A DNA stretch of 58,398 nucleotides from a virus (Duplodnaviria > Caudoviricetes), in IMG/VR virus record IMGVR_UViG_3300003971_000004, positions 1 to 58,398 of that record; one strand, written 5' to 3'. A program made the translations under genes and the position numbers. The notes beneath the pieces were generated by a model. The model did not search any database. It saw only the letters and a list, made by a program, of their open reading frames with translations, and was not told the DNA's origin. This document shows, in pieces, positions 28,749 to 56,914 of the stretch (position 1 is its first letter; the number at the start of each line of letters is the position of its first letter).

Positions 28749-28831
28749 CCGGCCGAGGAGCGGTAACTCCCCGGCCGGAAGGTTCCCTACCAAGGAACCT
28801 GCGCCTGATGCCCGCGCGGTAAGCACCGCGC
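28749..28831 (+). ncRNA. Candidate structured RNA / leader of three hairpins, including a start-less CTACCAA-loop hairpin
   Basis: Stems at 28749-28778, 28780-28800 and 28814-28831. Confidence 0.45.
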
Positions 28832-28876
28832 AAGACTGCCCGATCACAAATTTCTTTCCCTACCAAGGAGCTATCG

Positions 28877-30418
28877 ATGAACTATGTGACCGGGGGCTTC
28901 ACGCCTCCCGACAACGATTCCACGGTTCCGCCCGATCAGGCGCTGGCAACCCTCGCCAACATCAAGGACTTCACCGACGGGCGCGACCGCGCGATCGCGA
29001 TGTGGCTCGAAGCCTATGACAGCTTCCACGCCACGACGGCGGCGGCCGGCGCGACCTGTATCGCGGGCAACCTCTCGCTCTCGATCCCCCAGGACGACCG
29101 CTACTCGGACAACTCATTCACTCGCGCGTTCCTGACCACGGGACAAGCGCAGCGCTGGGACAAGGCGCTGGGTCGTCAGGTGGCATATGTCGCTCGCGAC
29201 GACTTCGAGAAGCTGCTCACTGCGAATATCGATCGGCGGTGCTGGTCACACCTGATGGAGCATCTCGGGTTCGACACGCTGCTCGACAGCCAGGCGCGAA
29301 GCGAGTTCCACGCCAGCATCCGCGACGCGCCACCGGCCTTCACTGTTGAGAACGCGAACGCGACCTTCTCCACCGTCTGGGCAAACCGGCGGGAGATGTA
29401 CCTGCGCGGTATCGCCAACGTCTTCATGAAGATGGACCGGCGTTTCCGCTCGCACGACGCCTTCGCGATCGGGAACCGCCTGATCTTCTCCAATGCGCTG
29501 GCGGTCGAGTGGGCGGGCTGGTCGAGCTACGACCGCGGTAAGCGGGACGCGCTCGCCGACGTCGAGCGGATCTTTCGCGAGCTGGATGGGAAGGGGCCGC
29601 TGCCATACGCGCAGCAGGTCTCGGAGCGCATCGCGATCCACCCCAACCTCCGCCCGCATCGCTTCGAGGAGGACTATTTCAAGATCGACGTCTTCAAGAA
29701 CGGCAACATCCACCTCTGGTTCACGCGCAAAGACCTGCTCGCCAAGGTCAACGAGCTGCTGCTCGAATATTACCGGCCCGTCGAGGGCGACGTCGATCAG
29801 AGCGCCCCGGGTTATGACGCGGGACCGCTCTACCATGCGACGCCGGCGAAGCATTACGGCTTCTTCCCCTCCCCGGAGCCGGTGGTGGCACAGGTGATGG
29901 CGCGGGCGGAGATGTACGGCCGGGCAGACTGCGCTGGGCAAATGCGGGACGAGTGGAAGCCCAGCCGCGTCCTCGAACCAAGCGCTGGTACGGGCGCGCT
30001 CGCGGCGGCCGCACGAGCCAAGGGCCACGATGTGACCTGTGTCGAGATCCAGCCGCACCTCGCATCCCTGCTGCGGACCAGCGGCTATCGGACGCGCGAG
30101 GGCGACTTCCTCGCGATGCAGCCCAGCGACCTCGGCGAGCTGTTCGATTTCGTCATCATGAACCCGCCCTTCGATCGTGGCCGCGACTGCGACCACGTCC
30201 GCCACGCGCTCAAATTCCTCAGGCCGGGTGGCCGGCTGGTCGCTGTCATGTCCGCCAGGGCGGAACACGCGACCGATGCGCGCCACAAGGCGCTGCATGA
30301 CGAACTGGCTCGGTTGGGCCGCGGCAATGCCCGCTGGATTGACCTGCCCGAGAAGTCGTTCGCCCTCGCAGGCACGAACGTGAACACCGTGATCCTGGAC
30401 GTCAGGAACTACCGGTGA
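28877..30418 (+). CDS. DUF4942-type protein with C-terminal amino (N6A/N4C) DNA methyltransferase
   Basis: FKIDVFKNGNIHLWF; FFPSP, VLEPSAGTG (motif I), MNPPF (motif IV), F...GTNVNT. Confidence 0.85.
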   Translation: MNYVTGGFTPPDNDSTVPPDQALATLANIKDFTDGRDRAIAMWLEAYDSFHATTAAAGATCIAGNLSLSIPQDDRYSDNSFTRAFLTTGQAQRWDKALGRQVAYVARDDFEKLLTANIDRRCWSHLMEHLGFDTLLDSQARSEFHASIRDAPPAFTVENANATFSTVWANRREMYLRGIANVFMKMDRRFRSHDAFAIGNRLIFSNALAVEWAGWSSYDRGKRDALADVERIFRELDGKGPLPYAQQVSERIAIHPNLRPHRFEEDYFKIDVFKNGNIHLWFTRKDLLAKVNELLLEYYRPVEGDVDQSAPGYDAGPLYHATPAKHYGFFPSPEPVVAQVMARAEMYGRADCAGQMRDEWKPSRVLEPSAGTGALAAAARAKGHDVTCVEIQPHLASLLRTSGYRTREGDFLAMQPSDLGELFDFVIMNPPFDRGRDCDHVRHALKFLRPGGRLVAVMSARAEHATDARHKALHDELARLGRGNARWIDLPEKSFALAGTNVNTVILDVRNYR

Positions 30419-30454
30419 TGCCCGCGACCCTTCCCTACCAACGGAGCAACCCTG

Positions 30455-30640
30455 ATGTCCAAGGAACCGTCGCCCCGATCTGATTTCCCGCTTCCCGCTG
30501 ACAAGGTCGATGAGCAGATCGCCGATGTTGGGCGCATGGCCGATCGCGACTTCGAGCGGTTCGGCTGGAACGAGAAGAAGCCGTCACCACCCCCGAAAAG
30601 GAAGCGTTCGCCGCGCAAGAAAAAGGCGAATAAGCAGTAA
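30455..30640 (+). CDS. Small protein with a basic C-terminus
   Basis: GGAG RBS inside a motif copy. Confidence 0.6.
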   Translation: MSKEPSPRSDFPLPADKVDEQIADVGRMADRDFERFGWNEKKPSPPPKRKRSPRKKKANKQ

Positions 30641-30656
30641 CTTAGAGTGGCGATTG

Positions 30657-30687
30657 TGCTTTACGCCGGTCGCCGGTGTCATAGAGT
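30657..30687 (+). promoter_or_regulatory. Promoter TGCTTTAC-N17-TAGAGT (copy 2)
   Basis: Shares boxes and spacing with 25499 and 55233. Confidence 0.6.
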
Positions 30688-30716
30688 TCGGGCTCCCTAC
30701 CAAGGAGTCCGAACCC

Positions 30717-30884
30717 ATGATGATTGACCACGGCATCCACCAGTTCTTTGACCAGGTGGACGATCTCCCCAGCCAGTGCTGCGCACGCGACCGCGATGAC
30801 AGTCTGAGCGCTTGGATCGTTGAGAACTTCGGCCCCGAGATCGCTGATGCGATCGTAGAGCGCGTCGGCGCGGAGGTGCTGTGA
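30717..30884 (+). CDS. Small acidic hypothetical protein
   Basis: AAGGAG RBS; stop overlaps the ParB start. Confidence 0.6.
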   Translation: MMIDHGIHQFFDQVDDLPSQCCARDRDDSLSAWIVENFGPEIADAIVERVGAEVL

Positions 30885-31762
30885 TGCCGAAGCGCATCGC
30901 CCTCGGCCGCATCTTCGGCAACCCCGACCAGCCCCGCAAGATCTTCGATGAGGAGGAGCTGCGGCACCTCGCGGCGTCGATCCGCGAGAACGGGCTGCTC
31001 CAGCCCATCACTGTCCGGAAGGAGAAGGACGGGCGCTACATGATCGTCGCCGGCGAGCGACGGTTCCGCGCCTGCCAGCTCCTCGCCGAGCAGGGCGGGG
31101 CGACGGAGATCGCGTGCAACCTCGCGAAGGTGGACGACGCCCAGCTCGCGATCGATGCCATCATCGAGAACGATCAGCGGGTCGATGTCACGCTGATGGA
31201 GCAGGCCCGGTCCTATCAGCGGATGATCGCGGAATTCGAATACACGCCGGAGACGTTGGCGGTGAAGTTGGGCAAGCCGCTGGTGCGGATCACCGAGCGG
31301 CTCCGGTTGCTCAATCTCACCGAGGAATGCCAGCACCTGCTCGAGCGCGGCCAGCTGTATCAGACCCAGGCCTATTACCTCGCCGGGCTGTCCGAGGCGG
31401 GGCAGGGGAAGCTGTTGCGCCAGATCAATGCGGGGCGGTGCCGGACGGTGACAGCCCTGCGCGATATCGCCCAGGCGATCGCCGAGGCGGAGGCTCAGAC
31501 CTCGATGTTCGGGGACAGCGAGACACCACCGCCGCCCACGGTCGCGGAGATAAGCGCGGCGCGCGGGTTCGAGGCACGGCTCGACAACATCGCGGCTTTC
31601 CTCCGTGCCGGCATCGATGACAACGTGGTGACGGCGGTCCGGAAGGTCGATCCCGGCCGGGCCGAGACGATCGCCGAAATCCTTGCGGTGATGCAGAAGG
31701 ACCTGCATCGGATGGAGGCCGCATTCAGGGTCGCGGCGGTGCAGGCGGAGCTGGCGGCGTGA
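30884..31762 (+). CDS. ParB/RepB/Spo0J family protein
   Basis: NPDQPRKIFD, GLLQPITVR, IVAGERRFRA, IIENDQR, HTH. Confidence 0.9.
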   Translation: MPKRIALGRIFGNPDQPRKIFDEEELRHLAASIRENGLLQPITVRKEKDGRYMIVAGERRFRACQLLAEQGGATEIACNLAKVDDAQLAIDAIIENDQRVDVTLMEQARSYQRMIAEFEYTPETLAVKLGKPLVRITERLRLLNLTEECQHLLERGQLYQTQAYYLAGLSEAGQGKLLRQINAGRCRTVTALRDIAQAIAEAEAQTSMFGDSETPPPPTVAEISAARGFEARLDNIAAFLRAGIDDNVVTAVRKVDPGRAETIAEILAVMQKDLHRMEAAFRVAAVQAELAA

Positions 31763-31953
31763 GGCAACCGAAGGCATGGAAGCAGCGGCCGACCCCGCTC
31801 CCATGGACGCCGGAAGAGGACGCCAAGCTCGAAGACATGACCCGTCTGGGCGTCGTCTCCGAGGCTTGGCCCGTCCAGTTACCGAACAGACGGTTCTACG
31901 AGATTGTGGAACGGCGGCTGGAGCTAGGTCTCCGCTGTGCTCCACTTCTTTGA
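31759..31953 (+). CDS. Small Myb/SANT-like protein
   Basis: PWTPEEDAKL...LPNR...I..R..LGL; GTGA coupling. Confidence 0.55.
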   Translation: MRQPKAWKQRPTPLPWTPEEDAKLEDMTRLGVVSEAWPVQLPNRRFYEIVERRLELGLRCAPLL

Positions 31954-31954
31954 T

Positions 31955-34900
31955 CTATTTCGGAAGCTCCTTCCTGAACATGTTCAGGCGGATGTCATCA
32001 TCCCAAATACCACCCCGCTTCCAGGATGAGATGAACTTTCGATCCTGCAACCAAGAAGCGAATTCGCGGTTGACCGCGCTATCCGCAAGCCGCGGCGTTG
32101 CCCAGCCCGGTCGAATTTCCGGCATCGGATCTGGAAGCAGCGCAAGAAGCTCTCGCACCTCGGCGTCCCCCACGCGATCTTGGAGCATGTTGAAGAGCGA
32201 GATTTGCGTCTCGAGGGGGTGGGAACGCAGTATGACTGCATGCATCCCCTCCGCGTCCAGGTTATCGACGATGACGCCTGTCCGGGCGAGGATGTCGCCG
32301 ACGAGAGCTGCCCGCGAGGGGATGTCGCGCAGCACGGATAGATCCATCGAGCGGATGATGCTCAACCGGCTGTCATCCGGGACGTCGGCTTCGAGAAGCT
32401 GCGCCTTCAAATCCTCGCTCACCTCCAATTCGTCCTGGAGCCTAAAGAATTCTTCCATGTTTGCGGTCACAAAGGCAGCCGCAAGCGAGACGTCATCTTC
32501 AAGCTGCGTCAGGGCGCGAGCTGAGAAGGTTATACGATTGAACTTGACCAAAGCCTGGCGCTTTTCCTCGCTAAGGCCATCAGGGAACAACCTGAACCGA
32601 GTCGGCAGGACCTGGAGGTAGGCTTCGTAAGCCTCACCGCTAAGGGCATCGTTCTGGACGATGAACTCGCGCAAAGGGAATGCGGCTTCGCCGCCGGGAA
32701 TCCTTTGGGAACCAAGCGTAGCTACTGCATGCGGGCGGTCGAGGAAGCTCGTTAGGATGTCAGCGTCAAACGTCTCGTGTCCGATGAAGAAAAGGCAGTT
32801 ATTCCACGACGGCTCGATCTTCCCCATAGCGACAAGCTCGGCATGATAGGCCGAGGGGACCTTGTCCATTTCGGGAAGAACGGTCGTCTGACGCTCGAGG
32901 AAGCTAAGGACGAGTTCGCGATCCAAATCTGTGCGGGCTAGGATGCTCAGTAGCGCCTCGATGCCTTCGGATCGGTTATCCGGCAGCTCGAGCAGCACAC
33001 TTTCCAGATAACTGCCAAACTGGCATTCGACCTTCGACAGGAGTCGATCATCTCCTGCTTCTAGGGCAAGGGTGTAATTCTGGCCACGCGACCGACCGTC
33101 GTCTTGGATACCGAGAACGGTGCCGAACACGAACTCCAAGTTTTTGACGGATAGCGCGTAGGCCCCTCGTTCGTATAGCATTCCCACGAAGCCGGGATGG
33201 GGTTCCAGCGCGGACAGGTCGGTGACCTCAAAGTCGAGCGAGCGGAGACGCTCGGGAGGGATATCTATCCCGAGCGCGAGAATCGCGGGCAGGTCCGACG
33301 CCAGAAAGTCCGTGAGCTCGGGATTCTGTTCGGCGAGCGTCTCCAACTGCCTGACTGGCAAATGGATCAGGATTCTAGCCGCGTGCGTGTGAGCGGCTGG
33401 ACTGGCCAAGATGGCCTGCACGAAACCCGACCAAGCGGACGCCAGCCTGGTTAACAGCTTTATGACCGCTGTGCCGCTCGCGTAGTATGCTGCGAGGAAC
33501 TCCTCGCAGTCGCCGAAGTCGGATGCGATGAAGGCGATGAGGCGCGACGTCTGTCCCTCATAAGAGGATGGATCAGCGAGGAGGCAATCGACGATCTTGA
33601 CGTTGAGAGCGTAGTTTCGCCCGAAGTCCTCGTCGCGCATCGCGAGGATGACCTCTCTTGGGTTATCGATCTGGAAGTTGGGATCGGGATTGCTGAAGCC
33701 GCGTATGCGGATGAGGAATTTATTGTCGCTCGGCGAGAGCCGGCCTTTGTGAAAAAGGGAAGTGTATTGGTAGTAGGTGTCGTCGAGGTAGCCCTCAAGC
33801 ACCAGGAAGCGCGCGAGATCTGAATTATCTCGAAAAGCTCCAAACATCCCGTCGGTCAGTTCCGAGCTGTCCCTCAATATCTCGTTGAACTTCATCATCC
33901 GCACGCGCGATAGCTTTGTTCTCAGTTCTGCAATTGTCTTGGCACTGCTCTCTCTGGCAGCGGTGGACCGACCCTCGACCAGAGAAACGCGTTGCGCGAA
34001 CGTCTTCCCGCCCTTGCGGCTTTCCGCCAGGCTGGAAAACGGTACACTCTGGAGCCCTAGATATTGACCGCTGACAAAGACGTTATCCGCTGCCAGAATT
34101 GCATCTACGGCTTCGCTCTTCAGCAAATCCCTCACCGGAACTAAGCGATGCTGATTTACTCCAACGTGGGTGGCGTTTGCAGGGATGGCTTCGATTAAAG
34201 CCATCGAGTAGATCGCGCGTAGCTCGGAGATGTCCTCCGGCAGCTGTCTATCGCCGGCCTCTACGACGGCCTCAAGACGTGCGATCTCAGCGGTTAGGCT
34301 GGCTTCGCTAGTGGCGATGTATCTATCGTGGCTCTGCAGGATCTCCGCAAGGTCACCCCGTCCACGGTGCAGCTGCTCAAAGTCGTTCGGAAATACGTTT
34401 TTGTAGATCAAAACGGCCAAAAGCTTCGTCGTGTCTAGGTTGGTTTCCCCTTCCGGCTCGAGGTTGGCAGCATATATAGCGTATTCGTTAAAGATGTTTT
34501 GGATCAGTCTCAGATCATTGAGGTATCTGGACACTTCTCGCACGAACTGCTTGTCCAGACTGTCGTCGATAGAGAGGCGCTTTCCTTGCTCAAGCACTTT
34601 GTCAATCGAGTTCGAACTGTTAATAATCGGAATTACAGGAATGATAAACTCGAAGAACTTGGTCCGGTCAGTGCTGACGAAGATATCGTCTCGAATAGCA
34701 TAGAGGAATCGAACCTTCCGACCCACCCTCACGTTCTTGTTCACGAGACTGTTGATCTCGCGTAACGTCACGAAAATCTCCGGATTATTGAACCTGTCAA
34801 GATCTTCAATCACAACCAGTTCGTAGCTCGTCGACTGGAAAAAATAGATAATCTCGTCGAGGTGACGGTTGAGTATCGACTCCTCATTCACCGCTGCGGG

Positions 34901-35602
34901 TGAAATTTCGATGTCTTTAAGCGAGATGCTCTTCAATGAGATGCCGAAGCTGGCAACGTAAATCCGGTGACAGAGCAGCCAGAGGAAGCCCCCTCCCAAG
35001 GCGAAAACGAGCAAGTTGAAAAGATTCTCTAGACCGAGGGGCAGAAAGTACGTGCCCGACATGATCCCGTCGCGCTTTTGGATCAGCTGCCAGGATGCGA
35101 CGAGCCCCAGTGCAATGAAGAGAGAGACAACGGGCGTCCACCGGCCGGGCGACTGTATTCGCTTGAACCGTGAGAGCGGTAATCGGTTCGCGTCGGCACC
35201 ATACAGCATTTGCTGAAGGATGCTTCGCTCGATCTCCTGTCTGCTCACCGTCAGCGTCTGTCTCTTGGTCTCCTGGTCGCTGTTCTCGCTAGTCGAGGGG
35301 GCCGCGTCGGGCATGAACGCCGCCAAGGAGATCTCGAGGGCCTTCCTATCATACTTTTTTAAAAATGATTTGATGATGCTGCTCTTACCGGAGCCGTAGG
35401 GTCCAGTGAGCGCAATGTTCATGGCGCGTGGGTTGCTGATGGCCTTGGTCAAGGCTGCGGAGTAAACGCCGGACTTATCCGCCTGATCGGTGGGGGCGAG
35501 ATCGACTAATTTTAGTTCGGGCCTTTCCTGAGTCGCCTCCTTCTTCAACCATTTTGCGGACGAGACGAGCAACTCTGCCAGCTTGTTCCGAAGGTCAAAC
35601 AA
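31955..35602 (-). CDS. YobI-type (KAP-related) P-loop NTPase with two TM helices
   Basis: NIALTGPYGSGKSS, IERSILQQ, VVIEDLDRF, RTKFFEFIIPVIP; visibly more AT-rich than its flanks. Confidence 0.88.
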   Translation of the reverse strand: MFDLRNKLAELLVSSAKWLKKEATQERPELKLVDLAPTDQADKSGVYSAALTKAISNPRAMNIALTGPYGSGKSSIIKSFLKKYDRKALEISLAAFMPDAAPSTSENSDQETKRQTLTVSRQEIERSILQQMLYGADANRLPLSRFKRIQSPGRWTPVVSLFIALGLVASWQLIQKRDGIMSGTYFLPLGLENLFNLLVFALGGGFLWLLCHRIYVASFGISLKSISLKDIEISPAAVNEESILNRHLDEIIYFFQSTSYELVVIEDLDRFNNPEIFVTLREINSLVNKNVRVGRKVRFLYAIRDDIFVSTDRTKFFEFIIPVIPIINSSNSIDKVLEQGKRLSIDDSLDKQFVREVSRYLNDLRLIQNIFNEYAIYAANLEPEGETNLDTTKLLAVLIYKNVFPNDFEQLHRGRGDLAEILQSHDRYIATSEASLTAEIARLEAVVEAGDRQLPEDISELRAIYSMALIEAIPANATHVGVNQHRLVPVRDLLKSEAVDAILAADNVFVSGQYLGLQSVPFSSLAESRKGGKTFAQRVSLVEGRSTAARESSAKTIAELRTKLSRVRMMKFNEILRDSSELTDGMFGAFRDNSDLARFLVLEGYLDDTYYQYTSLFHKGRLSPSDNKFLIRIRGFSNPDPNFQIDNPREVILAMRDEDFGRNYALNVKIVDCLLADPSSYEGQTSRLIAFIASDFGDCEEFLAAYYASGTAVIKLLTRLASAWSGFVQAILASPAAHTHAARILIHLPVRQLETLAEQNPELTDFLASDLPAILALGIDIPPERLRSLDFEVTDLSALEPHPGFVGMLYERGAYALSVKNLEFVFGTVLGIQDDGRSRGQNYTLALEAGDDRLLSKVECQFGSYLESVLLELPDNRSEGIEALLSILARTDLDRELVLSFLERQTTVLPEMDKVPSAYHAELVAMGKIEPSWNNCLFFIGHETFDADILTSFLDRPHAVATLGSQRIPGGEAAFPLREFIVQNDALSGEAYEAYLQVLPTRFRLFPDGLSEEKRQALVKFNRITFSARALTQLEDDVSLAAAFVTANMEEFFRLQDELEVSEDLKAQLLEADVPDDSRLSIIRSMDLSVLRDIPSRAALVGDILARTGVIVDNLDAEGMHAVILRSHPLETQISLFNMLQDRVGDAEVRELLALLPDPMPEIRPGWATPRLADSAVNREFASWLQDRKFISSWKRGGIWDDDIRLNMFRKELPK

Positions 35603-35816
35603 GACTGCAAGGCTCCTTTGAATGATTTAGTAACGATCGGTTCTGATCTGACCTAGAGCGAAAATTTCTGAGTTGGCGGGTCAGGTGGCCGATCATGTTG
35701 CTCTCCTCGATTCGAACGAACAGATTAGCGAGCGACTGCCTTGACGGCGATGACTATCGCGGTGTTTGGTCATTCTTAGGAGCGCCGGTGCCCGGCCTCC
35801 AACGACGGGGTATGCG

Positions 35817-36155
35817 ATGCTTTGGGCGATAGCGCTGATCGCGACGGTGCAAGGGCCGACCTACCAAGAAGCGGGAGATATCGGCGCCGCATGGACCGAT
35901 TGTGTGAAGCGCCAGCTCGCGCGGATCGACGATGACCGCGAGACCGTAACAGTGATCGTTCAGAGCGCTTTCGAGCTCTGCAAGGAGAGGCGCGCCGCGT
36001 ACTGGTCGGTGATGCACGACCTCTACGCGCAACGCGTGAAGAAGCTTGATCCGGTCGAATGGGCGAACCGATACATGGATCGGCAGGAAGGCGAACTAGC
36101 CATTACGGCCCGTGCGGCTGTGTTGGAACAGCGCGCCTCACGTCGGGGAAAGTAG
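35817..36155 (+). CDS. Putative exported protein
   Basis: Hydrophobic leader MLWAIALIA, two Cys. Confidence 0.55.
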   Translation: MLWAIALIATVQGPTYQEAGDIGAAWTDCVKRQLARIDDDRETVTVIVQSAFELCKERRAAYWSVMHDLYAQRVKKLDPVEWANRYMDRQEGELAITARAAVLEQRASRRGK

Positions 36156-36164
36156 GGGGAGCGA

Positions 36165-36983: not shown

Positions 36984-37039
36984 GTTGCCAGCAACAAGCG
37001 CGCATCATGGTGTGCGCTAGGCCGACCGCAAACGGGGAA

Positions 37040-43420: not shown

Positions 43421-43956
43421 CCGCGGCGCCTCACCCGGTCGGGCTCCGGCATGAACAGGTGATCGGAGCGCCAGGGCGGCGTCTCCTTCCCGATCTGCGT
43501 CACGAGGTGGTCGAGGATGCCTGCGGCCTCAGCCGCGTTGTGATCGGGTGCCGGCCAGCCGAGATCCTTACACCGGTTCTCAGCCATGATTTTGAAATCG
43601 TCGGTTCGGCCGGTCGCCGATCCATACCAGGTCTTCCGCCAGCTCGCGGAATAGATCAGCGTGCAAGGAATCGCCGCTGCCTTCGCCGCCCATTGGGTAA
43701 AGCTGACCAGCGCGACCTGCTTGAAGATGGTGGGCGCGTCGAGGTGCGGTGCAATGAACATCGCCTCGATACCGATGCGCTGCGGTCGATGCGCGCGCAG
43801 GAAGTCGCCGAGCCACTTCCGATACAGCTCAAGCATCGAGCCAGCATCGTAATCCCAGCCGACGATAGGTTTGACACCCAGCTGTGGCTGGGGGGCGTGG
43901 CCATCCCACACCCCCCAGCCAGTCTTCGAGCTGAGGTCGAAGGCAGCGTAGCGCAT
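43417..43956 (-). CDS. RuvC-like Holliday junction resolvase
   Basis: AFDLSSKTGW, IGIEA, SWRK, DHNAAEAAGI. Confidence 0.8.
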   Translation of the reverse strand: MRYAAFDLSSKTGWGVWDGHAPQPQLGVKPIVGWDYDAGSMLELYRKWLGDFLRAHRPQRIGIEAMFIAPHLDAPTIFKQVALVSFTQWAAKAAAIPCTLIYSASWRKTWYGSATGRTDDFKIMAENRCKDLGWPAPDHNAAEAAGILDHLVTQIGKETPPWRSDHLFMPEPDRVRRRG

Positions 43957-44195
43957 CAGGCGGTCAGCCCCTTGACCGCCCACATCACCGCTTCCTCGAC
44001 CTTGGTCTTCGCGAGCGAATATTCCCGGCTCGCACCGAGTTCGTCGATCGCGCTGAGCAATCCGGCACCCAAGTCCTTGATGCGGACCATCTGCGCCTTC
44101 TCCTCATCGCTGAGGACGCGGTACTGGTGCCGCACGGCGTTGTTCACCGTGCGGCTATCGCCTTCAGAGGCGACCTGCTGTTCCGGGGCGCTCAT
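43956..44195 (-). CDS. Acb2/Tad1-like anti-defence nucleotide sponge protein
   Basis: YRVLSDEEKAQMVRIKDLG and SREYSLAKTKVEEAVMWAVK. Confidence 0.7.
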   Translation of the reverse strand: MSAPEQQVASEGDSRTVNNAVRHQYRVLSDEEKAQMVRIKDLGAGLLSAIDELGASREYSLAKTKVEEAVMWAVKGLTA

Positions 44196-44524
44196 TATGC
44201 CGCGTCCGGAATGTCGCCGGGCGTGGCTTCGCTGTCGTTGGCGAACAGGTCCGCCTGGACAGGCACACCGAGCGCCTTGTTGCACAGGATCTGGCTACGA
44301 TCGAACTCGGCGCGAACGTCCGGGTCCATCTCGCGACGGCGTTTCGCCGCCCGCCATGCATCCATGTCGACGTTCGACGCCTTGATGCGCTTACGCTCGG
44401 CCGAGATGTCCGCGTTGATCGAGGCACGCTGTTTTTCGAGCTGGATGATCTTGTCGGTGCATTCCCGAATCAAGCTGACTTGGTCCGGATCGTTATGATC
44501 CGGGGGAGGGGTTCCTTGTCCCAT
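44195..44524 (-). CDS. GapR-like (DUF2312) DNA-binding protein
   Basis: KIIQLEKQRASINADI...RRREMDPD.RAE. Confidence 0.7.
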   Translation of the reverse strand: MGQGTPPPDHNDPDQVSLIRECTDKIIQLEKQRASINADISAERKRIKASNVDMDAWRAAKRRREMDPDVRAEFDRSQILCNKALGVPVQADLFANDSEATPGDIPDAA

Positions 44525-47242: not shown

Positions 47243-47245
47243 CCG

Positions 47246-47702: not shown

Positions 47703-47748
47703 ATTGTCATCGCCATAGCCCCTTTGGTCAGGGGCTGTGGAGATCACG

Positions 47749-48784: not shown

Positions 48785-48795
48785 AGGAGCCCGAG

Positions 48796-49608: not shown

Positions 49609-49952
49609 TGATCGAGTTCACCTTCACTCCGATCGCCAAGGCGCACATGGAGCGGCGTGGATATGGTGCCCGCGAGATGCTGGGCACCATCCCGGACATG
49701 CTCTGCCCTTCGAACCCGGGCAGCGCGGTCGAGCAGATCGACGTCGCCTATCGCGACATCGGCGGCGGCTGGCGCGATACTTCGGGGCTGAAGCTCAACG
49801 TCGAGGCCGGCACGCTGACCTATCCAGGTGATCCGGCTCGCCAGCTGATCGCACAGGGCAAGCTCCGCGACGAGCGCATCCTGTTCTTCGACGGTGCGTG
49901 GATCGCTGTTGTCCAGCCGGACGAGTCCTACCGCGTGGCGAGGATCGACTGA
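49608..49952 (+). CDS. Hypothetical protein
   Basis: TGATG coupling. Confidence 0.65.
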   Translation: MIEFTFTPIAKAHMERRGYGAREMLGTIPDMLCPSNPGSAVEQIDVAYRDIGGGWRDTSGLKLNVEAGTLTYPGDPARQLIAQGKLRDERILFFDGAWIAVVQPDESYRVARID

Positions 49953-50347
49953 TGGGCGCGCTTCCCTCGGGCGATTACGCCATCGTCGAAATCCTGGGCC
50001 ACCGGACAATCATCGGTCGCGTCGAGGAGGTCGAGCGCTTCGGCACCAAGCTGATGAGCATCGAGCCGCTGTTCAACGGCGAGCTGCTCAAGGCGGTACT
50101 GATCGGCGGAAGCTCGATCTACCAGTTCACGCCATGCTCCGCGGACGTGGCGGCGGAACGGTCGCCCAAAGAGGAGTGGCAGCTTCCGGTTTCGGTTCGC
50201 GCGGTGCTGCCGGAGATTGCTTTGGCTGGCCCGGAAACTCCGCTCCCCGATTTCGTCCACAGCCGTGCCGCGGCCGGCAACCCATGCCCACACCGTAACG
50301 ACCCCGCGCACGACATTTGGGAGTGCGTGGAATGCCGACCTTTTTGA
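49952..50347 (+). CDS. Hypothetical protein
   Basis: TGATG coupling; AIVEILGHR..GRV..GGSSIY motif. Confidence 0.65.
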   Translation: MGALPSGDYAIVEILGHRTIIGRVEEVERFGTKLMSIEPLFNGELLKAVLIGGSSIYQFTPCSADVAAERSPKEEWQLPVSVRAVLPEIALAGPETPLPDFVHSRAAAGNPCPHRNDPAHDIWECVECRPF

Positions 50348-50357
50348 GGAGATTCCC

Positions 50358-50621
50358 ATGACGAAGAGACAGTTTGTCATCGTCCGGTTCCGGCCGGAAG
50401 ACACCCGCACCTACACCTATCACAACGACGGCGAGCCGGTCGCTGCTGGCGACATGCTCAAGGTCGATGACTCCCGCCGGGGCGGCGACGGCTGGAAGCG
50501 CGTCGAATGCGTCAGCGTCACCGACGAAGTGCCGCCCTTCCAGACCAAGCCGATCCTTGGCCGGCTCGATGCCGAAGCCGTAGCCGATGGCGCGGCCGAG
50601 CCCTTTCAACTGGAGAACTGA
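50358..50621 (+). CDS. Hypothetical protein
   Basis: GAGGAG RBS. Confidence 0.65.
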   Translation: MTKRQFVIVRFRPEDTRTYTYHNDGEPVAAGDMLKVDDSRRGGDGWKRVECVSVTDEVPPFQTKPILGRLDAEAVADGAAEPFQLEN

Positions 50622-50624
50622 GAA

Positions 50625-51848
50625 ATGGCCACCCAGATCGCCCACGTCGACGATGCGCGCCGCGCCGTCGAATCCCTCAACAACCAGCTCGCGACGCGCG
50701 CCGACCAGTTCAAGATGGTGCTGCCCCAGCACATCACGCCGGGCCAGTTCCAGCGGACGATCATCACCGCCGTTCAAGGCGACGTCGAGCTGCTCAAGGC
50801 TGATCGCCAGAGCCTCCTGCTGGCCTGCATGAAGGCAGCGCAGGACGGGCTTCTGCCCGACAAGCGCGAGGCCGCGCTGGTGATCTTCTCCACCCGCGTG
50901 AAGGACGGCGACCGCTGGGTAACGGTGAAGCAGGTCCAGTACATGCCGATGGTGTACGGGCTGCGGAAGAAGATCCTCCAGTCCGGCGAGATCAGCTCGA
51001 TCGAGACGAACGTCGTCTATCGGGCGGAGATGGAGAGCGGGCGCTTCATCTACGAAGCGGGGACCGAAGCGGTGCTGCGCCATCGCCCCATGCTCGACCT
51101 CACCGACGAGCAGACCGCCGACAGCGAGATCGTCGCCGCCTATTCGGTCGCGGTGATGAAGGACGGCACCCGGTCGTTCGAGGTCATGCGCCGCTCCGAA
51201 ATCAACAAGGTGCGCCAGCGGAGCCAGACCGGCGCAGAGGGCCGCGTCTATGAGTTCGGCGCCAACAAGGGCAAGCCGATCGAGCCGAAGGGTCCGTGGG
51301 TCGACTGGTTCAGCGAGATGGCGCGCAAGACCGTCATGCGCCGCCACAGCAAGACGCTGCCTATGTCGGGCGACCTGATCGACGTCGAGGCACGCGACGA
51401 GGAAATCGCTGCCCGGTCGGTCAGCGCAGCGCTCGCCGAGGAGCCGGATGCACCGCGCCTGGTCCCGCCCGCGCGCGAGGAAGGTGACGCCGGCGATCCG
51501 CCGCACGATCCGGCGACCGGCGAGATCTCGGAAGAGGTCGCGCGCGTGCTCGATCAGGAGACGTTCCGCCAGGCCGATGGTACCGCCGCACTGGCGGAAG
51601 GCGAACCGGCCGCGCAGGACGCGCCGGGCAACGACGACAGCGGCGGTTCGCTGGCGGAAAGCGTCGCGGGGCAGATGATCGAACGGTGCCGCAACGCGCA
51701 GATCATCGGCGATGTCCTCGCGGTCGAGAGCGACCTCAAGACCCACCGCGAAGGGCTGGGCGACGATCTGTCCAAGACCGTCGATGACGCGATCGCCGAG
51801 CACAAGGCGCGGTTCAAGCCCGCCTCCACGAAGCGCACGGACGCCTAA
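50625..51848 (+). CDS. recT: RecT-family single-strand annealing protein
   Basis: ACMKAAQDGLLPDKREAALV, YMPMVYGL, PWVDWFSEMARKTVMRR..K.LP. Confidence 0.92.
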   Translation: MATQIAHVDDARRAVESLNNQLATRADQFKMVLPQHITPGQFQRTIITAVQGDVELLKADRQSLLLACMKAAQDGLLPDKREAALVIFSTRVKDGDRWVTVKQVQYMPMVYGLRKKILQSGEISSIETNVVYRAEMESGRFIYEAGTEAVLRHRPMLDLTDEQTADSEIVAAYSVAVMKDGTRSFEVMRRSEINKVRQRSQTGAEGRVYEFGANKGKPIEPKGPWVDWFSEMARKTVMRRHSKTLPMSGDLIDVEARDEEIAARSVSAALAEEPDAPRLVPPAREEGDAGDPPHDPATGEISEEVARVLDQETFRQADGTAALAEGEPAAQDAPGNDDSGGSLAESVAGQMIERCRNAQIIGDVLAVESDLKTHREGLGDDLSKTVDDAIAEHKARFKPASTKRTDA

Positions 51849-51853
51849 CCGTC

Positions 51854-52021
51854 ATGGCAGACCCGACGCTCCTCAATGCCCCGCCGTGTGTGTCCAGCCA
51901 GTCGCTTGCGGACCGCCGGACCACGATGCTGGCGCGGGACGAGGCGCGTCGGGAGCAGTGGCTGCGCACGCGCGGGCGGCGCAGCCACCTCCGCCGCCTT
52001 CTCGATTGGATGACCCGATGA
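51854..52021 (+). CDS. Small hypothetical protein
   Basis: 55 codons; stop overlaps the next start (ATGA). Confidence 0.4.
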   Translation: MADPTLLNAPPCVSSQSLADRRTTMLARDEARREQWLRTRGRRSHLRRLLDWMTR

Positions 52022-53727
52022 CGACTTCCCTTGGCCAGACCGCAGACGGCGCGTCCGTCGACCTCGACCTCGATGAGCTGATCGGTTCGCACCTCGGCGT
52101 CGTCGCCAACAGCGGCGGCGGGAAGAGCGGGCTGCTGCGGCGGCTCCTCGAAGCCACGGGCGGCCGGGTCCAGCAGATCATCCTCGACGGTGAGGACGAG
52201 TTCTACACCCTGCGGGAACGCCACGAGTTCGTGATCGCGGGCGGGGAGGGGGGCGACATCCCGGCTCCGCTCGCCAGCGCGGAGTCCCTCGCGCTCGGCG
52301 CGCTGACCCACGGCTTCTCGCTGATCGCCCAGCTCAACGACCTCGGCCCCGAAGGTGCCCCCGAGTTCATCGGGCGATTCCTGACCGCGCTGGTCAATGC
52401 GCCGCGTGACCTCTGGCATCCCGTGCTGGTGGTGGTTGACGAGGTGCAGCGGTTCGCGCCGCGCGTCGGCACCACCGAGGCGACCGACGGCATCCGCGCG
52501 CTGCTGTTCCAGGGCCGGAAGCGCGGGTTCACCGCCGTCATCGCCGGGACCAAGTTCACCGAGATCGACCCCGGCGTCCGGGGCATGGTCAACAACTGGA
52601 TGCTGGGCCGCGTCGGCCAAGCCGTAGACCGCAACACGATGGCGGAGCAGCTCGGCTTCACCGCGAAGGAGGGCCGGGAACGGCTGCGCGGAATCGAGAA
52701 GCGCCACTTCTACGCGATGGGCGAGGCGCTGACGCGGGAGCCGACCCTGTTCCGGGTCGCCGACGTCGAGACCACCCCGGTCCATGCGGGCCAAGCGAAG
52801 GTGCCGACGCCACCCGCACCCGAAGCGCTGCGCGAGATCCTCGCCGGGCTTGCCGCTGCGCCGACCGACGACGCGGAGGGCGCAGCGGTGCCGACGGGCG
52901 GGTCTGCGGCCATCGAGCCGATCACCGATGCGGAACGCGCCGAGCTGCTCGACCTCCGGCGCGAGCGCGACGACTGGACGATCGAGCGCGCCGAGGGGCA
53001 GCGCCAAGTTGACGTTCTGATCGCGGAAGGCCGCGCCCTGCGCGACTGCGCCGCGCGCATCGCCGAAGCCGCCGCTGATATGGCGCGCATCCGTCCGGCA
53101 CTCGACGCGCCGTCGCCGCAGATCACCACCCCAACCGAACCGGCCGAGCAATCCCCTCCTGTTGCCGCTCGGCCGCAGCCCGCCGCGCGCGCGCCCTCCA
53201 ATTCCGCGCGCGGCGGGCATATGTCGGTTGGCCCGGTCTCCGCCCCGATCATGAAGCTCATCAACGCTGTGGCATGGTGGAACTTGTTCGGGCTTGAGGC
53301 TCCGACCTCCAATCAGGTCGGTTTCATCGCTGGCTATGCCCCGACAGGCGGGACGTTCAAGCGGTACCGCGGCGATGCGCGCACGCGCGGACTTATCAGG
53401 TACCCCGGTGATGGGCGGTTGGCGCTGACGGATGAAGGGCGTCAGCTTGCGACGGCTCACCGTGAGGGAGTGCCGACTGTCGCCGCGCTCCACGCTGCGG
53501 TGCGCGACCACCTCGACGCGCCGCTGGTGAAGCTGCTCGATCCGATCCTTGCCGCCTATCCGCACTCGATCGCTGCGGACGAGGTCGGACGGGCCGCAGG
53601 CTATGAGGCGAGCGGCGGCACCTTCAAGCGCTACCGCGGCACCCTGAAAACCCTTGAAATCATCGAATATCCGAGCGCGGGCAAACTCCGCGCGGCGGAC
53701 TGGCTGTTCCCGGGAGAGGTCGCATGA
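52018..53727 (+). CDS. HerA/DUF87-like ATPase with duplicated C-terminal wHTH
   Basis: HLGVVANSGGGKS, LDGEDEF, VVDEVQRFAP, GRKRG; repeated AGY...GGTFKRYRG. Confidence 0.8.
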   Translation: MTTSLGQTADGASVDLDLDELIGSHLGVVANSGGGKSGLLRRLLEATGGRVQQIILDGEDEFYTLRERHEFVIAGGEGGDIPAPLASAESLALGALTHGFSLIAQLNDLGPEGAPEFIGRFLTALVNAPRDLWHPVLVVVDEVQRFAPRVGTTEATDGIRALLFQGRKRGFTAVIAGTKFTEIDPGVRGMVNNWMLGRVGQAVDRNTMAEQLGFTAKEGRERLRGIEKRHFYAMGEALTREPTLFRVADVETTPVHAGQAKVPTPPAPEALREILAGLAAAPTDDAEGAAVPTGGSAAIEPITDAERAELLDLRRERDDWTIERAEGQRQVDVLIAEGRALRDCAARIAEAAADMARIRPALDAPSPQITTPTEPAEQSPPVAARPQPAARAPSNSARGGHMSVGPVSAPIMKLINAVAWWNLFGLEAPTSNQVGFIAGYAPTGGTFKRYRGDARTRGLIRYPGDGRLALTDEGRQLATAHREGVPTVAALHAAVRDHLDAPLVKLLDPILAAYPHSIAADEVGRAAGYEASGGTFKRYRGTLKTLEIIEYPSAGKLRAADWLFPGEVA

Positions 53728-54242
53728 CGGACGACGCATTGGTCAGCACGCGCGAGCGCGCCGGCATCTATGATGGGCTAGAGTCCGCGAAGCCCGGCGA
53801 GCCGCTGTTCACGATCCAGGGCGGTGACCGCTTCGGTCCCGACACGGTGCTGCACTGGGCTGATCTGGCGCGGACCGCCGGGCGCCAGGAACCGAACCCG
53901 GAGGCTGCGGCCAAGCTGCTCAAGAAGGCGAGCGCCGCCGAAGAGGTCGCGTGGGCGATGCGGTCCTATCAGCGCAACGAGCAGCCCGACGATGCCCAGC
54001 GCGCGACGTATAGCGACCCCGAGCCGGGCACCACGCCGGAGCAGAGCGCAGCGGCCGCGCGCTCGGCGGATCGCCTCTACAACAGCACCTCCGAGATCAC
54101 GGGCGTTGTCGAGACGCTGGCGACACAGCGGATGCACCCCGACGCGGAGGTGATGCTGCGTGAAGCCCTCGACCTGATCCGCCAGGCGACTTGGTTGATC
54201 GAACCGCGGCGCCACCTCAAGCGGGAGCGGGCGTGTGGTTAA
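53724..54242 (+). CDS. Hypothetical protein
   Basis: ATGA coupling; PGEPLFTIQGGD motif. Confidence 0.65.
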   Translation: MTDDALVSTRERAGIYDGLESAKPGEPLFTIQGGDRFGPDTVLHWADLARTAGRQEPNPEAAAKLLKKASAAEEVAWAMRSYQRNEQPDDAQRATYSDPEPGTTPEQSAAAARSADRLYNSTSEITGVVETLATQRMHPDAEVMLREALDLIRQATWLIEPRRHLKRERACG

Positions 54243-54246
54243 GCGC

Positions 54247-54471
54247 TCAGCCTTCTTCGAGTTGGTGCCCGAGCGCCTGGATCTCGCCGCCCTCCCACTT
54301 CGCGGACTTGTCATCCAATTCGATGATGTAGCCGTCGCCATCGGGATTCGCCTGGGCGAGCGTGAAGATCGTCGCGCCCCGCAGAGTGCCGGTGAAGTCG
54401 GCGCGGCGGCGGTTCAGCCCGCGAACGAACAGCCAGACCGTTGCCGGTGCATCCCAAGGTATCTCTGCCAT
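54247..54471 (-). CDS. Small hypothetical protein, antisense within the early operon
   Basis: MAEIPWDAPATVWLF... has protein-like composition. Confidence 0.5.
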   Translation of the reverse strand: MAEIPWDAPATVWLFVRGLNRRRADFTGTLRGATIFTLAQANPDGDGYIIELDDKSAKWEGGEIQALGHQLEEG

Positions 54472-55006
54472 GACTGATCGCCCCATCATCTTTTCTGGCC
54501 CGATGGTGCGCGCGCTGCTCGCCGGACGCAAGACAAAGACTCGGCGGCTGGCGACCTCGCCCCTCTCGCGCTGCGCGGTTGGCGATCGGCTCTATGTCCG
54601 CGAACATTGGAAGACCTCGCTCGGGTTCGACGAGTTCGCGCCCAAGGATCTTCCCACCAATGCGTCGATCCTTTGCCTCGCGGACCACACGGTTCCGACG
54701 CAAGCATTCGCCAGCGCATGGGGGAAGCATCGCCAGGGCATGCACATGCCGCGCTGGGCGTCTCGCCTGACCCTCATCGTAGAAGGCAATCGGGTGGAAC
54801 GCCTGTGCGATGTTTCGCCGAGCGATGCGATGGACGAGGGATGGCCCGGCTTGGGCGAGGGTAACCAGCACCTCCCCGTCAGTTGGTACATGCACCTGTG
54901 GCAATCGCTGCACGACAAGGAAGGCCAGCGCTGGGAGGACAACCCCGAGGTGCTGGTCCTGACCTTCAGCGTCCGCCACGGCAACATCGATCGGATCTCG
55001 GCATGA
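54470..55006 (+). CDS. ASCH/PUA-like phage protein
   Basis: PIIFSGPMVRALLAGRKTKTRR, GDRLYVRE, HMPRWASR, WEDNPEV. Confidence 0.8.
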   Translation: MTDRPIIFSGPMVRALLAGRKTKTRRLATSPLSRCAVGDRLYVREHWKTSLGFDEFAPKDLPTNASILCLADHTVPTQAFASAWGKHRQGMHMPRWASRLTLIVEGNRVERLCDVSPSDAMDEGWPGLGEGNQHLPVSWYMHLWQSLHDKEGQRWEDNPEVLVLTFSVRHGNIDRISA

Positions 55007-55203
55007 CGCGCCCGTTCGATCGCGCCGACGGTCGCCCGCGCGTCTACATCACGACGACCGGCGACGGTGCCAGCTGGGCGCTTGGGCCGAGCGGAACGCG
55101 CCGTCCCGCCCTGGATGCGGGGTCCGCTCTAAACTTCGCGCTCGACCACCTCGGCACCGAAGCGCGGGGTGGTGCCGTTGTCATCGTGGAGCCGGTGCTG
55201 TGA
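55003..55203 (+). CDS. Hypothetical protein
   Basis: ATGA coupling. Confidence 0.55.
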   Translation: MTRPFDRADGRPRVYITTTGDGASWALGPSGTRRPALDAGSALNFALDHLGTEARGGAVVIVEPVL

Positions 55204-55232
55204 CGCAAAAAACCGCAGAAAACTGCGCCTTC

Positions 55233-55263
55233 TGCTTTGACCCGGTCGGCGATGAACTAGAGT
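55233..55263 (+). promoter_or_regulatory. Promoter TGCTTTGA-N17-TAGAGT (copy 3)
   Basis: Shares boxes, spacing and CCGGTCG with copy 2. Confidence 0.6.
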
Positions 55264-55309
55264 TCGCGGGTCAAGGAAACGCGACGATCCCTACCAAGGA
55301 GCAACACCC

Positions 55310-56914
55310 ATGATGCAGTCCATTCCGCTGAACCGGCTGACCCGGTCCGACCTCAATGTCCGCAAGACGAACCCGGCCGAGGACGTCGAAGGCCTCGCCG
55401 ATGACATCGCGGCGCGCGGCCTGAAACAGAACCTGGTCGCAATCGCGACGACGGACGCCGATCAGTTCGAGGTCGTCGCCGGCGGGCGGCGCTTCGCAGC
55501 CCTCAAGCTGCTGGTCGAGCGCGGCGAGCTGCCCCCGGAGTTCGAGGTGCCGGTGCTGATCGAGGCGCAGGAGCAGGGCGTCGAGACTTCGCTGGCGGAG
55601 AACATCCAGAAGGTCGCGATGAACCCCGCGGATGAGTTCCTCGCGTTCTCGACCATCATTGACCAGACCGAGGGCGACGACGCGGCGCGTATCGCGCACT
55701 GCGCGCGGCGGTTCGGCGTCACCGAGCGGCATGTGCGCGGGCGCCTCCGTCTCGCCAATCTCGATGAGGCGATCCTCGGTGCGCTCCGCGAGGGGGTGAT
55801 CGGTCTCGGCTCCGCTGAGGCCTATGCCTCGGTGGATGACGCTGACCTCCAGGCCAAGGTGTTCGCCGATCAGTCGAAGTCGAATTACAAGCCGCACGAT
55901 CCCGCCAGCATCCGGGAGGCTCTGAGGAACAAGACCTATAGCGCGTCGGACAAGCGGGTCCGCTTCGTGGGCCTCGACGACTATCTCGCAGCGGGGGGGC
56001 GGACCGACATCGACCTGTTTTCGATCGATGCCAGCGAGCGGGTTGTCGACACCAAGCTTCTGGACAAGCTTTTCAAGGATAAGCTGGACGTCGAGCTTCC
56101 GAAGTTCGCGAAGAAGCACAAGCTCGAGAGCGTCACCTTCGTCCAGACCGCCTATGCCTCGCTGCCTGCGCCGGAGGGATGGACGACCGTTTATGATCAC
56201 CGCGGCGAGATCCGCGCTCAGCGGAAGGCGGACAAGCTCCCGACCCGCGCGGGCGTCTGGCTCGACGAAGACCTGAAGCTCCAGATCGGCTCCCACCTGC
56301 TGGTCCCAGCTGATCCAGTCGAGGAGGGCGAGGAGCGCCGTCAGTTGTCCGAGGAAGAGCGCGCCGCCCTCCGCGCCGCGGGAGAGCGCGAGCGCGCGAT
56401 CGATCTCGAAGCGTTCCGCCTCGCCTTTCCGAAGTGTGCCGGGTCGCCGCTGGAAAACCGGGTGTTCATGCCCGCACTGGGCCGCTGGGCTCGGATCACC
56501 GAACAGGACGACGACATCTTTCTCGAGGTCAGCGTCCGTGTCTCGCGCGAGGAATTCGAGGCGCAGCGCGACGCCGCGACGGTCGTCTATGACGAAGCGC
56601 TGGCCGAGCAGGAACGTCAGCGGATCGCTGCGGCCGAAGAGGCGGAGCGGGCGCGCGAGGAACTGATCGCCAACCCGCCAGCCGTGGTCGAGACGAACCT
56701 TCTTGGGGGCACGATCTTCTACCGCTGGGCCGACGGTTCCTATGCCGATGCGCCCGAGGCGTCGGATGGCGGCGAGGAAGACGAAGCCGAGTACAGCTTC
56801 GAAGCGATCGCTGACCTGATGAACGACGTCGGTATCCTCTCGCACTATCCGTCCATTGAGGCCTTCCGCGAGGCAACCGCAGCTGCGGAGGCTGAGGGCG
56901 AGGACGCCTCCTGA
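55310..56914 (+). CDS. Large ParB/RepB/Spo0J-domain protein (plasmid-type)
   Basis: NVRKT, GLKQNL, VVAGGRRFAAL, SLAENIQKVAMNPADE, RFGVTERHVRGRLRLA. Confidence 0.88.
   Translation: MMQSIPLNRLTRSDLNVRKTNPAEDVEGLADDIAARGLKQNLVAIATTDADQFEVVAGGRRFAALKLLVERGELPPEFEVPVLIEAQEQGVETSLAENIQKVAMNPADEFLAFSTIIDQTEGDDAARIAHCARRFGVTERHVRGRLRLANLDEAILGALREGVIGLGSAEAYASVDDADLQAKVFADQSKSNYKPHDPASIREALRNKTYSASDKRVRFVGLDDYLAAGGRTDIDLFSIDASERVVDTKLLDKLFKDKLDVELPKFAKKHKLESVTFVQTAYASLPAPEGWTTVYDHRGEIRAQRKADKLPTRAGVWLDEDLKLQIGSHLLVPADPVEEGEERRQLSEEERAALRAAGERERAIDLEAFRLAFPKCAGSPLENRVFMPALGRWARITEQDDDIFLEVSVRVSREEFEAQRDAATVVYDEALAEQERQRIAAAEEAERAREELIANPPAVVETNLLGGTIFYRWADGSYADAPEASDGGEEDEAEYSFEAIADLMNDVGILSHYPSIEAFREATAAAEAEGEDAS

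Follow-up and report, generated by a model that had tools for sequence, protein, structure and literature searches.

In cluster A mycobacteriophages, the immunity repressor acts at stoperators, DNA sites that occur genome-wide, without a fixed spacing to Shine–Dalgarno (SD) sequences, and the c4 RNA of phages P1 and P7 is an antisense RNA that blocks ribosome-binding sites (RBSs). Closest to the element described here are the start-associated sequences (SAS) of cluster K mycobacteriophages, which the available text of their description presents as short, asymmetric words of one orientation, located at the start codons of non-structural genes and absent from the host (PMC3203893). What reads them was not known when they were described (Pope et al., 2011, PMC3203893), and the 2025 Yasnaya_Polyana paper, in its accessible part, still calls their functional role unverified (PMC12699233). 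Among phage antisense RNAs, the accessible part of a review gives P22 sar and lambda OOP, whose complementarity includes the RBS and which have one or two gene targets (PMC12197685). Here, we analyse a short repeated word in IMG/VR virus record IMGVR_UViG_3300003971_000004 (Caudoviricetes). The whole record, a 58.4-kb provirus (58,398 nucleotides) with a CheckV completeness estimate of 69%, is referred to as the window. The word, with the core CCCTACCA, stands before early, non-structural genes in this temperate Sphingomonas phage and in its distant relatives. We consider it very likely that it is a real, selected, phage-private and start-associated signal, which acts either at the level of RNA and translation or as a tightly linked DNA site.

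A one-strand word at the starts of early genes

The 12-mer CCCTACCAAGGA occurs at positions 28785, 28858, 30695 and 55289, always on the + strand, and a variant with a one-base insertion, CCCTACCAACGGA, is found at 30433. By chance, 0.13 occurrences of the 12-mer are expected, and none of 100 shuffled sequences contained four or more. These exact counts confirm the four positions and the variant given in an earlier reading of this DNA (hereafter, the original prediction). The 7-mer CTACCAA occurs eight times in the window (1.02 expected); its three other copies (33767 on the − strand, 35861 on the + strand and 42230 on the − strand) are not leader sites. The leader-type copies are one-stranded, with all five on the + strand.

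Four of the five copies, termed B to E, end 11–14 nt 5' of the ATG codons at 28877, 30455, 30717 and 55310, in keeping with their predicted place at ribosome-binding sites. Copy B (TCCCTACCAAGGAG, 28857–28870) forms the leader and SD of a DUF4942 N6-type DNA methyltransferase gene (28877–30418). Copy C (TCCCTACCAACGGAG, 30432–30446), which carries the one-base insertion, lies 14 nt past the methyltransferase stop and leads a 61-aa basic-tailed open reading frame (ORF; 30455–30640). Copy D (word at 30694–30707, within an 11-bp hairpin at 30686–30714) leads a 55-aa ORF (30717–30884), the 3' end of which overlaps the start of a ParB gene (30881–31762). Copy E (TCCCTACCAAGGAG, 55288–55301) provides the leader and SD of a 534-aa ParB-like gene (55310–56914), which adjoins the integrase gene. 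Copy A (TCCCTACCAAGGAA, 28784–28797) is an orphan; no ORF begins at SD distance from it, merely a four-codon ATG...TAA. No copy precedes the tail, portal, terminase or other structural genes, and the absence noted in the original prediction was borne out across the whole − strand block at 1–27 kb of the window.

Two prophages are nearly identical to that of the window, one from IMG/VR (provirus L001/G001), with 91% identity in the methyltransferase, and one in the chromosome of a Sphingomonas sp. metagenome-assembled genome (L132/G002). No close relative was found among 50,697 deposited phage genome records. More distant relatives are a viral contig with a methyltransferase of 39% identity (L002/G004), which carries 4–6 copies of the word, and an Alsobacter prophage (L148/G003, contig 8; methyltransferase 42% identical) with at least nine copies over ~40 kb, all on the gene strand. 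Copies keep to a single strand in the relatives as well, with five of five in G001, four of four in G004 and 12 versus 1 in L231. In the leaders of the distant relatives the conserved part is linear and consists of the core CCCTACCA, then 0–8 nt, then GGAG, AGGA or GGA, and then the start codon. The gap between CCA and ATG measures 11–18 nt in 18 start-associated copies from four elements.

Viral contigs scanned for CCCTACCACGGAGA yielded 101 stretches, and several contigs contributed more than one of them. Counted on the richer strand, 78 stretches have one copy of the 8-mer and 23 have 2–12; the richest one-strand loci hold 12, 7, 7, 7, 6 and 5 copies, the maximum being 12 in 14.9 kb. At the multi-copy loci, an ORF of at least 40 aa starts within 6–26 nt after 84 of 97 copies. 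Across loci with a G+C content of at least 0.57, 112 of 141 distinct copies are start-associated, and the remaining 29 include chance single matches to the search pattern. The word-led genes are early or non-structural and belong to many unrelated families, including methyltransferase, ParB, ParB-like, Gam-like, beta clamp, deoxynucleoside triphosphate pyrophosphohydrolase, ADP-ribosylglycohydrolase, winged helix-turn-helix, DUF6011 and DUF2786 proteins. The DUF4942 methyltransferase accompanies the word in 9 of 15 partial elements and ParB in 7 of 15. Searching the viral contigs with the 14-mer TCCCTACCAAGGAG gave at least 118 matches, mostly single and of mixed G+C, which, with no control scan, we take to be largely chance; among the matches listed for CTGTGGTAGGGATT, most were low-G+C chance matches. 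In the Alsobacter prophage, the word lies between the SD and the start of a ParB-like gene (L148 12606, − strand; L165 7007, − strand; GGAGATCCCTACCATG), a register that differs from every other copy.

L002/G004 and the Alsobacter prophage L148/G003 retain the word in front of orthologous or analogous early genes at methyltransferase identities of only 39–42%, which indicates that it is under selection. The signal proposed in the original prediction is thus non-random, phage-specific and tied to the RBSs of non-structural genes, and it persists where the rest of the leaders has diverged.

In host genomes the word is not enriched. In the 4.0-Mb Sphingomonas chromosome G002, the pattern CCCTACCA-N0-3-GGA occurs five times, all in the prophage, and the reversed controls gave 0 and 3. 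Of 301 Sphingomonadales genomes, 220 have at least one match to the pattern; the counts per genome are small and not above the reversed-pattern control. Among the matches listed for these genomes there is no other one-strand cluster, and the nine forward matches listed for G094 are scattered over seven contigs. The 13-mer CCCTACCACGGAG was found at eight sites in 6 of 401 genomes of the class, three of them in the Alsobacter prophage, compared with 23 sites in 22 genomes for the reversed control (a hand count of the table). The original prediction had named frequent occurrence before ordinary host genes as the finding that would speak against it, and neither G002 nor the sets of 301 and 401 genomes show such enrichment. 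The word is phage-private. The pattern appears rarer in host genomes than its reversed control (8 versus 23 sites for the 13-mer), which may reflect avoidance or mere composition.

The word lies anywhere from 6 to 25 nt away from a −10-like hexamer but keeps a tight spacing to the SD, and a number of copies are intercistronic, standing straight after a stop codon. This combination of variable promoter distance, tight SD distance and intercistronic placement suggests a role at the level of RNA and translation. We regard it as improbable that the word is instead a DNA site, such as an asymmetric operator or roadblock for a phage protein (ParB/KorB-like or a repressor), co-oriented with transcription as stoperators are. 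A DNA site would account for copies that lie 6–8 nt past a −10-like hexamer in D, L002 and L275, for the ParB genes that accompany the word and are themselves led by it, and for the orphan copies, which would need no transcription. However, the variable spacing to promoters and the tight spacing to SDs are difficult to reconcile with an operator, some intercistronic copies leave no room for a promoter, and the structural genes have no copies inside or between them. ParB and KorB sites are usually palindromic and the word is not; in relatives, a separate palindromic operator-like box is already present at these promoters.

ORFs of the window were annotated by Pfam scan. The − strand structural genes (~1–27 kb) encode tail, portal-MuF and terminase proteins as well as a ParB–methyltransferase fusion. 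To their right follow a HigB/HigA-like pair and the DUF4942 methyltransferase gene, then the 61-aa and 55-aa ORFs, ParB and an island of low G+C content that encodes a YobI-like NTPase. Beyond it lie genes for DnaB and RecT (replication and recombination), an S24 repressor-like gene, the 534-aa ParB-like gene and the integrase gene. The HigB-like toxin and its HTH antitoxin (28106–28740, + strand) are situated between the late operon and the motif-bearing genes. The 1215-aa YobI-like P-loop NTPase (31955–35602, − strand; PF20693, E 1e-120), whose island has a G+C content of 47–59% within a 65% G+C phage, probably represents a defence-type moron. An Acb2/Tad1 hairpin domain was detected in a 109-aa protein (43956–44285, − strand; E 7.5e-20), which is a candidate sponge of cyclic-nucleotide defence signals. 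ParB N-terminal domains are found in four ORFs (25941–27347, 27292–28050, 30881–31762 and 55310–56914), one of them fused to a methyltransferase and one a weak match. With the ParB-like protein as query, viral contigs gave no matches; with ParB, they gave the known relative only, plus unrelated matches at 27–33% identity.

Hairpins and candidate readers

The original prediction had interpreted the copies as hairpins over the SD, with an invariant CTACCAA loop on covarying stems. Copy A (28780–28800) does form a perfect 7-bp hairpin with the loop CTACCAA (−14.4 kcal/mol, z −1.8 against shuffles) and copy D (30686–30714) an 11-bp hairpin (−20.6 kcal/mol, z −6.05). The other three of the five window copies lack a stable hairpin, with folds no better than those of shuffled sequences (copy B, −1.8 kcal/mol, z +0.72; copy C, −5.0 kcal/mol, z −0.38, with different pairing; copy E, −2.7 kcal/mol, z +0.70). 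Their 'stem' is just the 3–4 pairs inherent in TCC...GGA. Nor is the hairpin a family trait: distant copies keep the linear 8-mer CCCTACCA at a variable distance from the SD, with no conserved stem.

It is therefore very improbable that the copies form a family of SD-sequestering hairpins, read at the invariant loop by a single factor, even though the stable stems of A and D differ around the same loop. Besides the unfolded copies B, C and E and the lack of a conserved stem in distant copies, copy A has no gene to regulate, and the 5' arm of copy D overlaps its own −10-like hexamer. If the promoter-like site of D is real, transcription would start at ~30693–30695 and most of the 5' arm would be absent from the mRNA.

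Several known readers and families were considered. CsrA SELEX (systematic evolution of ligands by exponential enrichment) yields the consensus RUACARGGAUGU, which UACCAAGGA resembles while overlapping the SD, a likeness already remarked on in the original prediction. However, the GGA belongs to the 3' arm of the A and D hairpins, falls in an unstructured stretch in copies B, C and E, and never sits in a hairpin loop as a CsrA site needs. The CsrA profile PF02599 matched none of five records (the phage, two relatives and two host genomes; G000–G004), and its control gave matches in E. coli, B. subtilis and T. maritima, three of the 14 reference genomes. The resemblance was thus set aside. Searching Rfam 15, as the original prediction had proposed, matched no family: the window gave no match at the gathering score, and the region 28600–31000 together with five related loci gave chance-level matches only (E ≥0.17).

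The idea that the word copies a segment of 16S rRNA is wrong for host G002. Its 16S rRNA contains no CCTACCA, and no useful complement to the word was found in it beyond the SD; the sole near-complement, TGGTGGGG at position 221, is presumably buried inside a helix. A link to tRNA was dismissed, as the window has no tRNA gene, and the only + strand TGGTAGG elsewhere in the window that might serve as the seed of a small RNA is inside dnaB. Literature text searches for the word and its complement, with supplementary files outside their coverage, returned only primer noise and one unrelated fungal paper.

A protein reader was weighed against the same evidence. T4 RegA and Mu Com, acting on their mRNAs, are models for a phage or host protein that would bind CCCUACCA as single-stranded RNA beside the SD and repress or activate translation, with the orphan copies as decoy or autoregulatory sites. 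This would explain the same positional evidence; copies B, C and E leave the C/A-rich word unpaired, and many small phage ORFs have no family assignment. Nevertheless, a Pfam scan of ~50 window ORFs found no KH, S1, CSD, Hfq, CsrA, ProQ-type or other RNA-binding domain. The elements share no family apart from DNA methyltransferase, ParB and an unknown 204-aa family (9, 7 and 7 of 15 partial elements, respectively), and blastp down to E 0.05 found no small protein common to the window, L002 and the Alsobacter element. A reader supplied by the host would sit badly with the lack of host copies in G002, and the opposite-strand bias at orphans, described below, would be left unexplained. On balance a protein reader seems unlikely, although it retains some credibility. 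The original prediction had left the choice of a single reader between an RNA-binding protein and an antisense RNA; the absence of RNA-binding domains in the scanned ORFs counts against the former, and the arrangement at the orphan copy lends circumstantial support to the latter.

The word might also have no dedicated reader. It could be an unstructured, C/A-rich translation enhancer that needs no factor, or the shared end of promoter–RBS cassettes spread by recombination, for which the CUP repeats of IncN leading regions and the promoter/stem-loop cassettes of T4-type phages are analogues. The leaders of D and E are indeed paralogous over ~60–110 nt, including their promoter-like part; when aligned, they share 75% column identity with one 18-nt indel. 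The promoter-like site 5' of copy D (TTTACG-16 nt-TAGAGT, 30660–30687, + strand) corresponds to that 5' of copy E (TTTGAC-16 nt-TAGAGT, 55236–55263, + strand), both being picked by eye and below the 9-of-12 threshold of the promoter scan. In addition, an 11-bp direct repeat, TGATGCCCGCG (28806–28816 and 30416–30426, + strand; read from the sequence, without statistics), flanks the methyltransferase cassette. Its second copy overlaps the methyltransferase stop codon, and the pair looks like the scar of a cassette insertion or recombination. The word contains no G and could not mask the SD beyond 3–4 pairs, as would suit an enhancer. Against this, the exact 8-mer is kept at 39–42% protein identity with the adjacent leader bases randomised, the downstream genes come from many unrelated families, the word is never used by the host, and the 16S rRNA of G002 offers no free complement. 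We therefore give a word without a reader a low probability.

Two further features concern promoters. A − strand promoter-like sequence (ATGACA-18-CACAAT, 30682->30653) adjoins the + strand site of copy D in divergent orientation; transcripts from it would run antisense to the 61-aa gene, copy C and the methyltransferase gene, toward the terminator-like hairpin at 28749–28778. In relatives, the operator-like palindrome TTGTAACCAAATTGGTTACA is located in promoters 5' of motif copies (L273, L275, L196, L255 and L212; for example, L275, − strand orientation, 4969). A related box, GTTACCATTTTGGTAC, is found at the 5' side of the candidate antisense RNA described next.

The orphan copy and a candidate antisense RNA

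Copy A, listed among the hairpin copies in the original prediction, is not supported as a fifth target. No gene follows it, and, judged from the sequence, it more probably encodes the regulator itself, on the opposite strand. The 3' part of the candidate antisense RNA (28739–28831, − strand) comprises a hairpin (28831->28814), a seed hairpin (28800->28780) with the loop UUGGUAG, a terminator-like hairpin (28778->28749) and the tail UCGUAUUUCU. A terminator scan detected the last hairpin on the − strand only, with the tail TCGTATTTCT. Its G+C-rich stem of 13 bp begins one base after the seed hairpin, and its two non-Watson–Crick pairs are G·U on the − strand and would be A·C on the + strand. 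The − strand fold of the candidate region has an energy of −64.4 kcal/mol (z −3.19). In the near-identical provirus L001, a stem change in the hairpin at 28814–28831 likewise yields a G·U pair on the − strand only. All 7 nt of the seed loop UUGGUAG are complementary to the loop of leader D, CTACCAA. The window thus directly presents, on one strand, a target complement beside a stem-loop and a U-rich tail, the layout expected of an antisense RNA.

Gene-less copies also occur in several relatives, one in each. The orphans nearly always read CCCTACCACAG(G/A)A, and the targets mostly CCCTACCACGGAG; at multi-copy loci CAG follows the word in 7 of 12 orphans versus 12 of 77 targets. All ten gene-less copies of the CAG/W type have an opposite-strand hairpin of −12 kcal/mol or lower within 40 nt. 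At least four T within 10 nt after such a hairpin are found at 6 of 10 orphans, compared with 12 of 112 start-associated copies. In 8 of 9 elements the opposite strand gives the better fold of the orphan flank, with G·U making up 31 of 173 pairs there versus 9 of 145, and hairpins 5' of start-associated copies show no strand bias (17 versus 17). A strict terminator scan placed a terminator on the opposite strand beside the orphan in the window, L211 and L221 (three of six loci) and never on the motif strand; in L255 it found another hairpin on the opposite strand. Loops of the type cUUCGg are present on the opposite strand in two elements, and conservation within the five-member L273 subfamily is highest in the seed and the terminator. 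RNAalifold detected one pair with two-sided change in the candidate RNA (five sequences, three of them nearly identical). A terminator-pattern scan returned just the five loci already known. A look-up of sequencing runs for the locus listed no RNA run, which is neutral as to transcription.

Based on these observations, we tentatively propose the following mechanism. The repeated 12–14-mer is a private start-associated leader word of this temperate phage lineage, its core CCCTACCA placed 0–8 nt 5' of the SD bases and 11–18 nt 5' of the start codons in a subset of early non-structural genes. It would work on the mRNA at translation initiation, and not through a common hairpin. Its most likely reader would be a phage antisense RNA made from the strand opposite copy A, in which the complement UCCUUGGUAGGGAA, with 7 nt in a hairpin loop, lies one base 5' of the terminator-like hairpin and U-rich tail of the − strand. 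Copies B to E would be the targets and copy A the 3' seed region. Pairing of the RNA with the four leaders is predicted to cover the word and the first SD bases and could shut, or tune, ribosome loading on all four genes together. In the structured leader D, pairing could begin as a 7-nt loop–loop kiss. Transcription of the − strand, the pairing and the sign of its effect are what we infer from the orphan arrangement, and we hold such an antisense RNA, with the complement of copy A as its seed, to be a real but tentative possibility.

Several points weigh against this antisense RNA. Duplexes predicted between the candidate RNA and the leaders, spanning the word and the first SD bases, reach −27 to −33 kcal/mol, but such energies are strong by construction. 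Neither a promoter scan nor inspection by eye found a convincing − strand promoter between 28832 and ~28900, and the strict scan found no terminator beside the orphan in L273 or L196. In L255, a strong promoter-like site lies on the motif strand just 5' of the hairpin and the orphan, so that this orphan would belong to a + strand RNA and serve as a long leader or a decoy. About half of the elements have their orphan 73–173 nt 5' of a start-associated copy on the same strand, an arrangement that would also fit a two-copy leader. Of the 112 start-associated copies, 67 have an upstream hairpin as well. The complement in the Alsobacter element falls within the 3' untranslated region of a − strand operon that encodes SSB, a ParB-like protein and a 236-aa product, and the terminator there therefore has an ordinary job. 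Finally, any model that lets copies spread inside a genome predicts that orphans resemble targets, and the orphan sample is small (9–10) and partly related.

Taken more broadly, it is possible, if somewhat doubtful, that these temperate phages of Alphaproteobacteria use a private 8-nt word to join early genes (methyltransferase, ParBs, replication and anti-defence) into one translational regulon through a single antisense RNA.

Comparison with known phage signals

Like stoperators, which are asymmetric, 13–14 bp long, numerous in each genome and found in short intergenic gaps, the word is co-oriented with transcription. In contrast to them, its copies all lie in the early region at a tight spacing to the SD, and the structural genes have none. 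A stoperator-like operator was thus rejected, since no genome-wide spread that includes the structural operons was found.

The candidate RNA resembles sar and OOP in being a small phage RNA with hairpins and an intrinsic terminator, complementary to the RBS region (PMC12197685); in the window, the complement of the target sits in a hairpin loop. According to the accessible part of that review, sar and OOP act on one or two genes, mostly from the overlapping strand, whereas here one predicted seed would serve four leaders spread over 26 kb, and up to about 12 in relatives (PMC12197685). A single seed for 4–12 leaders is not among the examples of phage antisense RNAs in that part of the review (PMC12197685). 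If the antisense reading is true, these phages would control early and anti-defence genes across the genome by a translational switch of their own. Such a switch would bear on lysogeny and on the timing of superinfection, and could offer orthogonal parts for translational control.

The closest parallel is with SAS, as far as the available text of their description goes. Both are short asymmetric words in a single orientation, placed a few nucleotides from start codons, which contain or abut the SD (PMC3203893). Both are confined to non-structural genes of diverse families, are kept across sub-lineages and are missing from the host genome, and in both inverted repeats are sometimes found just upstream (PMC3203893). 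All four traits of the SAS kind that we tested, namely orientation, position at the start codon and SD, non-structural genes and absence from the host, are found for the word. The differences are equally clear. The sequences are unrelated (GGGATAGGAGCCC for SAS versus CCCTACCA plus SD here), the core lies 5' of the SD here and around it in SAS, and the window has five copies, compared with the 11–19 reported for SAS (PMC3203893). The hosts are Alphaproteobacteria instead of Actinobacteria, and the phages differ too. Membership of the cluster K sequence family itself (GGGATAGGAGCCC with up to two mismatches, consensus from PMC3203893) was rejected, as word, phage and host are all different. A gene-less copy beside an opposite-strand terminator is present here and is not described for SAS in the available text of either paper (PMC3203893, PMC12699233). 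The word is therefore of the SAS-like kind, unrelated to SAS in sequence, phage and host, and not a member of the cluster K sequence family.

Its significance lies in this combination: an unrelated word with SAS behaviour, in phages of a different (host) phylum, is kept in very divergent relatives and never used by the host. The terminator-linked complementary copy supplies a specific candidate reader; if it is true, the start-associated sequences of phages at large, for which an explanation has long been missing, would gain a concrete mechanism open to testing. Should the antisense reading prove wrong, the word still stands beside SAS as a second, independent case that any explanation of SAS has to cover.

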